Assembly: GCA_038042445.1 (NCBI GenBank)
Contig: JBBTED010000002.1
Coordinates: 14,783 to 78,782 of the forward strand
Source of the DNA: Candidatus Firestoneibacteriota bacterium
GTDB taxonomy: Bacteria > Oederibacteriota > D2-FULL-39-29 > JBBTED01
Reading direction: 5' to 3'
DNA length: 64,000 nucleotides
Below, piece by piece: positions 33,001 through 36,000 of the stretch; within the stretch, counting starts at the first letter, position 1; each line of letters starts with the position of its first letter. Position numbers: made by a program.

Positions 33001-36000
33001 AATAAAGTCGGATATTAGTATTAATATTGATGCTAATACAACTGAATCTGTTGTTGATTTTCCAACACCTTCGGCCCCACCTGTAGTTATAAAACCCTTA
33101 TGACATCCTACTATAGCAATTATAATAGCAAATACACCTGTTTTCAAAAGACCATTAACAACATCACGTAGATCTAAATATAAAATTACACTCTCAACAT
33201 AACTTACAGTACTTGTATCTAATTTAGTATAACTTATTAAAAATCCTCCTAAAATTCCTATAAAATCAGCGAAAATTGTAAGTAATGGTAACATAAGCAA
33301 GCATGCCAAGAATCTTGGAACTGCTAAATATTTTACTGGATTTGCTGCCATTGTCTCTAATGCATCTATTTGCTCTGTAACTCTCATTGTCCCAATTTCT
33401 GCAGCAATTGCCGAACCTATTCTTCCTGCAACTATAATAGCAGTAAGCACAGGACCTAATTCTCTGCATAGTGATATAGAAACCATTCCACCAATAAATT
33501 GCGTTGAGCCAGCCATTTTTCTTTCTAATGTAACTCCTGTTTGCAATGCCAATACCATTCCTGTAGAAACAGATGTCAATGCCACAACAGGAATAGAATT
33601 TACACCTATTTGCACCATCTGATACATAGTATTTTTCCATTCAGACGGCTTACGCCATATCCAATAAAATACCTGTCCCAGAAGTTTTGAAAGCTTACCC
33701 GCTTCTTCAAGGTAATCTAAAATACCCCTGCCTAATATTTCAAGATATTTAAAACGCATTTTTTATAAACTCAATATTGTTTTCTTCAGAAATTGCAATT
33801 ACATCAAACCTACAGGAACTATCAGTAAGTTTGTTTTTGACAAGATACTCTAAGGCTGTTTTTTTAATATGCTGCTGCTTAAATACATCTACAGCTTCTT
33901 GTGGATAGGAAAAATTATTGTTTTTACGTGTTTTCACTTCTACAAAAGTAATTGTGTTTTTATCCTCTGCAATAATATCTATTTCACCTCTATTTGATTT
34001 GTAATTTCTGGCAAGAATTTTATATCCATTTTGTTTTAAAAAATCAGTTGCTATCTCCTCCCCCTTGGCTCCCAACTTGCACCTCGCGTTTTCTTTCATC
34101 AATTCTACCCTCTCTTTCTGATTTTCCACGGAGATAGTATAATTTTGCCCTTTTGACTTTCCCATGTTTTAAAACTTTAATTTTATCTATAGACGGGGAA
34201 TACAAAGGTAATACTTTTTCTACGCCAACTCCATAAGAAACCTTCCGCACTGTAAAACTCTCATTTGTTCCACTACCTTTACGCGATATTACTATACCCT
34301 CAAAAACCTGAATGTGTTCTTTACCACTTTCACTTACTTTTAAATATACTCTAACTTGATCTCCCGGAAAAAATTTTTCAATTCGTGCGTGTTCTGTTTT
34401 TTGCTGTTCCATATTTATCATCCTTCCTTTTTGATTTCTTTCAATAATTCTTTATCTTCTTTCGAAAGATTTGCCTGCTCTAATAAATCAGGTCTGTTAA
34501 TTAATGTTTTTTTAATTTGTTCCTGCCTCCTCCATTTTTTTATCTTTTCATGATTACCTGATAATAATACCTCAGGTACTTTCAATCCTAAATATTCATC
34601 TGGTCTGGTATATTGTGGATAATCCAATAAATCCTGAGAAAAAGATTCATTTAGAATTGACTTTTCATTACCCACAGCATTTGGTAATAATCTTACAATA
34701 GCATCAATAACTACCATACAAGCAAATTCTCCACCACTTAAAATATAATCACCAATAGAAACATCATCTGTTGCTAAAAACTTTCTGACCCTTTCGTCTA
34801 CTTCCTCATAATGACCACAAATAAACATTAAATGTTTCTTTTTAGATAATTCCAATGCTTGGCTTTGTGTAAACTTTTTCCCGGATGGGGAAAGAACTAT
34901 TATTCTATCGCTATCCTTTAATTTTAATTGAAATTGTTTCTTACTCATTTTATCTTTTGTCAACAAACAAGAAATAGCTTCAAAAATAGGTTCAGGCTTA
35001 AGAACCATGCCTTCTCCTCCACCATAAGGACAATCATCCGCAGTTTTGTGTTTATCATAAGTATAATCTCTTATGTTATGTATTTTTATCTTAACTATAC
35101 CTTTTTCACAAGCTTTTTTTATTATACTATATTCTAATGTATTTTTAAAAATATCAGGAAAAAGCGTGAGAATATCTATTTGCATCTACTTGAGAATTTC
35201 AATCACAACTTTTTTGTACAATTTTGATGCTGATGCGCCTGCTAATATACGAAGTGCTTTTATTATATGCCCTTCTTTTCCAATAACTCTTCCCATATCT
35301 TCCTGCGCAACTTTTAGCTCTATTATTGTAGTTTTCTCCCCTTCAAGAGCATTAACAACTACCTGTTCAGGGAAACAAACTAAGGATTTCACAACATATT
35401 CAACTAAATTTTTTAGCATAAAATATCTTTATCCCTCTGAATTTTATCCTAATACGGGCTTTTTCTTACCTAACAAAAACTTAGAAAATATACCAGATTT
35501 TAAAAGAAAAGACTTTACAGTATCTGAAGGCTGTGCACCCTGCCCAAGCCAGTATATACTTCTTTCTTCATTTAATTTGAATTTATTAATCGTTTCTGCT
35601 GGTTTATAAGTCCCAAGTACTTCCAGAACTCTTCCAGCAAGTTTTTTACGTTTATCATTCACCACTATTCTGTAAAATGGCTTTTTAGTAGTTCCAATCC
35701 TTTTCAAACGTATCATTACTGCCAAATTTATCACCCCCTAATGAAATGTTAATTTTTAGATTCATACAATGATAGTTTATAAACAAAATATCGTCAAGTA
35801 AAAAATAGGTAGAGTTTACCCTTTTTTAATTAGGGAAGCGATTTTTTCTTTAGTTAGTGCTCTTCCACAGGTTCTTTGGCCTTCATCACAATACAAATAA
35901 AAATCGCATTTAGGTGTAAGATATTGGGCAATAATTGGGAATTTATTTTGCATTTCTTTTTTTACCAAACTCATAAGTTTTCTGATTTCCCATTGAGAAC

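Follow-up and report, generated by a model that had tools for sequence, protein, structure and literature searches.

The window analysed here is a 64-kb stretch of a metagenome-assembled genome (MAG) of Candidatus Firestoneibacteriota, and all operon coordinates given below are positions within it. ORF coordinates together with Pfam and NCBIfam matches place four tightly packed genes on its minus strand, in the order rpsP-khpA-trmD-rplS. The first gene, rpsP, encodes ribosomal protein bS16 (Pfam Ribosomal_S16, 8e-22) and lies in the ORF 35444..35734, with its likely start at an ATG at 35716 that is internal to this ORF and in the same frame. After a spacer of 24 nt follows khpA (35186..35419), the gene of a small KH-domain RNA-binding protein (Pfam KH_KhpA-B, 1e-20) which scores 92 bits against NCBIfam PRK00468, under the cut-off of 106 bits. 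The third gene, trmD (34418..35185), encodes the tRNA (m1G37) methyltransferase (Pfam tRNA_m1G_MT, 6.6e-62; NCBIfam TrmD, 315 bits); TrmD residues 1-235 align to positions 1-221 of the NCBIfam model, and the N-terminus carries no fusion. The last gene is rplS (34044..34421; ribosomal protein bL19; Pfam Ribosomal_L19, 3.5e-40), which overlaps trmD by 4 nt, or is separated from it by a 5-nt gap if rplS begins at the next ATG. The operon is flanked by thyX upstream and by yraN and mlaE downstream. The longest ORF of yraN (UPF0102; 33749..34165, minus strand; Pfam UPF0102, 9.7e-30) overlaps rplS, and therefore its true start is probably an internal one.

The operon is thus found as the genome-wide survey's note had described it, contiguous and without rimM at its canonical place, and the coordinates and spacings given there (no gap between khpA and trmD, a 5-nt gap before rplS) are correct. 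The khpA stop and the trmD start meet at 35185..35186 (minus strand) with a gap of 0 nt, and since the first base of trmD directly follows the khpA stop, there is no room for rimM. Neither the ORF coordinates nor the profile matches reveal a rimM remnant in the window operon or space for a gene.

The rimM position in relatives and across the class

The canonical bacterial operon is rpsP-(khpA)-rimM-trmD-rplS, as in the trmD operon of E. coli and in rpsP-ylqC-ylqD-rimM-trmD-rplS of B. subtilis. The window shares gene order and tight coupling with this arrangement, but differs in that rimM is cleanly missing. To place this in the phylum, we used a sample of 99 genomes, all of them MAGs, with families labelled f1-f23. 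The class of the window's genome consists of families f1-f4 and is represented by 13 genomes from 6 genera, the window's own included. These are 80-98% complete, six of them 94-98%; the window's own genome is 90% complete and consists of 181 contigs.

A protein was counted as RimM if it had an N-terminal RimM domain (PF01782) and a C-terminal PRC barrel in about 170-180 aa; its gene is usually encoded between rpsP and trmD. The full order rpsP-khpA-rimM-trmD-rplS occurs in three loci of two other families of the phylum (L041 and L043 in f7, L046 in f6), and both RimM domains are there in all three. Since these relatives hold rimM between khpA and trmD, exactly where the two genes abut in the window, the window operon is the same operon minus rimM. 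The other class loci show a similar picture. TrmD is detected in 12 of the 13 class genomes, and in 10 of the 11 class loci besides the window's, rpsP is followed by trmD (about 20-45 nt apart) and then rplS, while yraN follows rplS in nine of the 11. A tblastn search with an f7 RimM gave no match in any of these 11 loci. They have no khpA at the operon site either, i.e., khpA is also out of the operon in class families f2-f4, which is a further difference from the canonical arrangement. Among five class genomes tested, only the window's own has a KhpA over the Pfam cut-off.

Genome-wide, no class genome has a PF01782 match over the cut-off (0/13), and two junk matches reach 18-19 bits. In the phylum, RimM is present in 52 of 99 genomes, belonging to f5, f6, f7, one of five f8 genomes, f9, f11, f12 and f13. 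The sole match in the window's own genome (C153:217-315, 18 bits) is an L35Ae ORF of archaeal type. Its neighbours on this 2.7-kb contig are an L10e-type uL16 and an IS66 transposase, and the contig is probably an archaeal contaminant.

Era, EngB, RsgA, Der and SRP

To count as Era, a protein of about 300 aa had to have an Era-type G domain and, C-terminal to it, a KH domain (TIGR00436); matches were counted where they spanned model positions 1-270 in one frame, with clear fragments added. No class genome has a full-length Era (0/13). The class matches to the Era model are of the G domain only; they cover positions 1-170 and lie within MnmE, Obg, HflX and FeoB frames. A GTPase truncated where contig C5 ends, considered as a possible partial Era, is HflX at 456 bits (NCBIfam). 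In the phylum, Era is found in 43 of 99 genomes (38 full length, 5 fragments) and absent from 56, its bearers being f5, f8, f9, f11, f12 and one f20 genome. This agrees with the earlier claim that Era is missing family by family. A tally of 72 of 99 genomes over the cut-off was discarded, as it sums both G domains of Der.

For EngB/YsxC (TIGR03598) and RsgA (PF03193), membership required a family-specific GTPase above the curated cut-off. EngB is found in none of the 13 class genomes at E<=1e-20, and in the phylum it is present in 18 of 99 genomes and absent from 81. RsgA is likewise found in 0/13 class genomes at E<=1e-5, with 31 of up to 61 candidates per class genome scored; strong matches occur in 26 of the 99 phylum genomes, with RsgA absent from 73 when part of the candidates is scored. 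Both GTPases are also missing from several bacterial control genomes. On repeat search, RimM, Era, EngB and RsgA are thus each missing class-wide, as the survey's note had stated. Its further claim, that this clade-wide loss marks the lineage, stands only in part: the four losses are real throughout the class, but they are not specific to it and form a mosaic over the phylum. Families f10 and f14-f23, for instance, lack Era, RimM and EngB (apart from the one f20 genome with Era) but have Der. Because the losses of Era, RimM, EngB and RsgA are scattered in this way, these four do not define the class.

Der and Era are regarded as near-universal and usually essential bacterial proteins, and as antibiotic targets. 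Der/EngA, which the survey's note had left unchecked, was identified by two tandem G domains and a C-terminal KH-like domain in about 440 aa (TIGR03594), and it is absent from all 13 class genomes. The best matches to the Der model in the class, found in 11 genomes, score 125-151 bits and cover one G domain only; all 11 are MnmE (348-430 bits on TIGR00450) and were ruled out as Der. Outside the class, Der is present in 82 of 86 phylum genomes, in 76 over the cut-off and in 6 either full length just below it or split, and the four genomes without it are 63-93% complete. With 0/13 inside the class against 82/86 outside, Der is therefore the loss that is sharply confined to the class and defines it, and it is the most surprising one.

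The gene neighbourhoods agree with these absences. In f7 relatives the order is der-plsY-gpsA, while the window's genome has a CsgG-like gene, plsY and gpsA in the middle of contig C42. Upstream of plsY in nine other class loci, there is a match to a Der HMM in two only, both in f2 genomes (G006 and G008). The G006 match, considered as a possible Der remnant and the one of the two that was named, is HflX at 422 bits. It sits behind a pgsA-like gene, and an f4 locus has the same pgsA-like gene with HflX further upstream. As for era, f12 relatives place it two genes past corC, and in the window's genome phoH-ybeY-dgkA-corC is followed by speD, inside a contig. These comparison neighbourhoods come from distant families (f7 for der, f12 for era), and their synteny may therefore not be ancestral for the class. 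That plsY-gpsA and phoH-ybeY-dgkA-corC are intact inside contigs without der or era nonetheless argues against an assembly or binning artefact.

The window's own genome was also searched with HMMs that we built from the Era, RimM, Der, EngB and RsgA proteins of phylum relatives, with filters relaxed and every stop-to-stop frame of 50 aa or more in the six-frame translation as target. In this genome they matched only MnmE, HflX, Obg, FeoB and translation factors, through their G domains. For RimM the best E-value was 1.7, and neither the KH domain of Era nor the KH-like domain of Der was matched significantly. When MMR_HSR1 proteins are inventoried in the same genome, only MnmE, FeoB, Obg, HflX, YchF, IF2, TypA, LepA, EF-G and MobB appear, seven of which NCBIfam puts over their cut-offs.

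The survey's note had also reported the loss of SRP. This is real in these assemblies for Ffh, FtsY and the 4.5S RNA, but it is not confined to the class, as it extends to families f6 and f7. At E<=1e-10, the Ffh/FtsY model TIGR00959 has no match in 13 class, 4 f6 and 11 f7 genomes, and among the f6 and f7 genomes without a match are assemblies of 7-10 contigs with 98-100% completeness. In the class, matches to the SRP54 GTPase domain score just 19-24 bits, and our own Ffh HMM reaches at best 15.6 bits in the window's genome. Elsewhere, Ffh/FtsY is over the TIGR00959 cut-off in 58 of 99 phylum genomes, and f5 and f10 have weak matches only. No 4.5S RNA was detected in three class genomes and one f7 genome, while it was found in an Ffh-bearing f13 genome.

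Retained factors and the state of the ribosome

The factors still present include Obg, HflX, YchF, MnmE, LepA, TypA, RbfA, RimP, YbeY and uL1. RbfA and LepA, which served as positive controls, are each present in 13 of 13 class genomes, and in the five of these 13 that were tested for them, Obg, RimP, YbeY and uL1 are each found in 5/5 and RelA/SpoT in 4/5. Hence RbfA, RimP and YbeY stay, as claimed earlier; the GTPases listed as found in the survey's note (Obg, HflX, YchF, LepA, TypA and MnmE) are all placed above their cut-offs by NCBIfam. The identity of LepA is 66-68% inside the class and 58-66% outside it (52% in one f10 genome), a range in which the families nearest to the class are not separated.

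The ribosomal RNAs are of ordinary length. The 16S rRNA of three class genomes measures 1530-1615 nt; its 3' end is the canonical GGATCACCTCCTTTCT, in which the Era-binding GAUCACCUCC and the anti-Shine-Dalgarno sequence lie. The 23S rRNA in the class is 2994-3380 nt long with full model coverage, and class genomes have a size of 1.7-3.0 Mb.

Explanations for the absences and comparison with other lineages

In our judgement, with a probability of roughly 80%, RimM, Era, RsgA, EngB and Der have really been lost throughout the lineage, and ribosome maturation runs on the factors that were kept. Directly observed are the absences themselves, which factors are retained, the intactness of the neighbourhoods and the 3' end of the 16S rRNA, whose Era-binding site is unchanged. 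The ancestral rpsP-khpA-rimM-trmD-rplS would have undergone a clean deletion of rimM, of which the window would be the visible scar. The five lost factors would then comprise RimM, Era and RsgA for the 30S subunit and the GTPases EngB and Der for the 50S subunit. Maturation of the 30S subunit would be served by RbfA, RimP and YbeY, that of the 50S subunit by Obg and HflX, and LepA and TypA/BipA might act as general helpers. These factors would suffice, perhaps aided by slow growth, with no unrecognised substitute in existence. Such a scheme matches the pairings described for CPR bacteria, in which loss of der goes with retention of obgE, and loss of era with retention of rbfA (PMC12641178). 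A bolder version, which we put forward only tentatively and would not bet on, is that a free-living class makes full-size ribosomes without Era, Der, EngB, RsgA and RimM and inserts its membrane proteins without SRP, and that either Obg and HflX form a sufficient GTPase core or there is assembly and targeting machinery of an unknown kind.

The factors might instead have been lost and their jobs taken over by unrecognised, lineage-specific proteins, i.e., non-homologous or very divergent chaperones or GTPases. According to PMC12641178, Der has proved essential in all cases tested and >99% of non-CPR genomes retain it. In the class, there is no change in the rRNAs, the Era-binding site or uL1, and the same assembly steps are presumably still required. 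Against such substitutes, the MMR_HSR1-type GTPases of the window's genome all have known identities, and our own HMMs picked up neither the KH domain of Era nor the KH-like domain of Der there at a significant level. Taking both sides together, with searches that covered GTPases and known factor profiles in this one genome, we regard replacement by unrecognised proteins as unlikely.

Incomplete MAGs, faulty binning or insensitive searches could also make genes appear absent. The window's genome is only 90% complete in 181 contigs and one of its contigs is an archaeal-type contaminant; its HflX is cut by a contig end, showing that truncation does happen. Yet an artefact would have to remove five unlinked genes from 13 of 13 genomes in 6 genera, including the six at 94-98% completeness, and the three canonical slots of rimM, der and era sit inside contigs. 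The searches were also sensitive enough to detect small or divergent controls (RbfA 13/13, RimP 5/5) and to recover Der from 82 of the 86 MAGs outside the class, and the six-frame HMM search with relaxed filters concurs with absence. An artefact is accordingly highly improbable. Even less credible is an extra replicon (a chromid or high-copy element, for example) that carries all the missing genes and has been dropped by every binning. It would account for so many essential genes, those of SRP among them, being absent together, but nothing direct points to it. Where rimM, der and era ancestrally stood, neighbours now abut on ordinary contigs, which fits deletion better than relocation, and Era and SRP are still missing from f6 and f7 genomes of 98-100% completeness in 7-10 contigs. 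Real loss with maturation on the kept factors therefore remains our preferred reading.

The closest parallel is the repertoire of CPR/Patescibacteria as described by Amikura et al. 2025 (PMC12641178). In that study, der and obgE are found in >99% of non-CPR genomes, CPR classes without der keep obgE, and era is lost in CPR while rbfA is kept. The class studied here resembles this repertoire in that der is lost with obgE kept, era is lost with rbfA kept, rimM is absent and the distribution follows classes; the corresponding counts are Der 0/13 and Era 0/13 against Obg 5/5 tested and RbfA 13/13. The same study ties der loss to small genomes and altered ribosomes, and reports that uL1 loss goes with der loss in one CPR class (PMC12641178). 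The signs of reduction are not seen here: in contrast to the CPR described there, with genomes of about 1 Mb and RimP nearly absent, the class has genomes of 1.7-3.0 Mb, full-length 16S and 23S rRNAs, uL1 (5/5) and RimP (5/5). By these features of genome size, rRNA, uL1 and RimP, the lineage is not CPR. Few factors are also reported for Omnitrophota and Bipolaricaulota, but with too few genomes to judge (PMC12641178).

For Era, a review names only extremely genome-reduced groups as having lost it, i.e., Dependentiae, Chlamydia and most CPR, describes it as patchy in Planctomycetota, Elusimicrobiota and Synergistota, and ties its loss to extreme genome reduction and simplified ribosomes (PMC10582724). 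The present phylum is like these groups in that Era is missing from whole clades and present in sister clades, with 43 of 99 genomes having it. Unlike the Era-loss groups of that review, the class shows neither genome reduction nor a simplified ribosome, the Era-binding 3' end of its 16S rRNA is unchanged, and Der, EngB, RsgA and RimM are missing as well. In the literature that we searched on loss of Der, Era or SRP in uncultivated lineages outside CPR, there was no description of the present case, while the supplements of PMC12641178 may list non-CPR genomes without der. What is new here is that assembly factors are lost much as in CPR, yet the genome is not reduced and the rRNAs are not shortened.

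The class thus separates der loss from a small genome and an altered ribosome, as it lacks five factors but is ordinary in genome size, rRNA length, Era-binding site and uL1. This opens the question of what the minimal set of assembly GTPases is, whether Obg can stand in for Der and RbfA for Era, and to what extent 'essentiality' is a matter of growth rate and context. The genes of these assembly factors are also used as phylogenetic and completeness markers. Where they serve as completeness markers, lineages such as this one would receive completeness scores below their true values.

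Signal recognition particle

The SRP appears to have been lost in the class (families f1-f4) and in families f6 and f7 of the same phylum. Neither Ffh nor FtsY was found in any of the 13 class genomes, the four f6 genomes or the 11 f7 genomes, and this negative set includes assemblies of 7-10 contigs with a completeness of 98-100%. The 4.5S RNA was likewise not detected in the four genomes without Ffh/FtsY that were tested (0/4), while an Ffh-bearing genome of family f13 has it. In families f5 and f10, the Ffh/FtsY matches are only weak ones.

The der position and the trmD operon

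In families f2 (locus L142, G006:C14) and f4 (locus L144, G017:C97), a short HflX of 356 aa belongs to a miaA-hflX cluster, with a pgsA-like gene, plsY and gpsA downstream of it; der has this position in family f7. The f4 locus additionally carries a 688-aa gene between hflX and the pgsA-like gene.

The window's own genome (G000) retains khpA at 35186-35419 of the window, and a KhpB-like match is found upstream of mnmE on its contig C48. In the other class loci (L109-L119), khpA is not at the rpsP-trmD junction, and KhpA does not reach the Pfam cut-off in any of the four other class genomes tested. Within the window, the longest reading frame of yraN (33749-34165) shares 122 nt with the 3' end of rplS, and the true start of yraN is probably an internal ATG.

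Weak or fragmentary matches to assembly factors

The sole weak RimM match of G000 comes from contig C153, a 2.7 kb contig that encodes an L35Ae-type protein, an L10e-type uL16 and an IS66 transposase (L001:190-1815). As these are archaeal-type ribosomal genes inside a bacterial bin, contig C153 is probably a contaminant. Outside the class, the only Era match in the f12 genome G054 is a C-terminal fragment (C9:304838-305230) with three in-frame TGA codons, which may represent a pseudogene.

RimP copies and the 23S rRNA of G017

Two copies of RimP are present in G000, approximately 3 kb apart (C81:43915-44121 and C81:47082-47288) and both upstream of infB and rbfA; each of the four other class genomes tested has a single RimP. 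The 23S rRNA of the class genome G017 is 3380 nt long (C39:6811-10190) with full model coverage, compared to approximately 3000 nt in the others, and may hold an insertion or intron.
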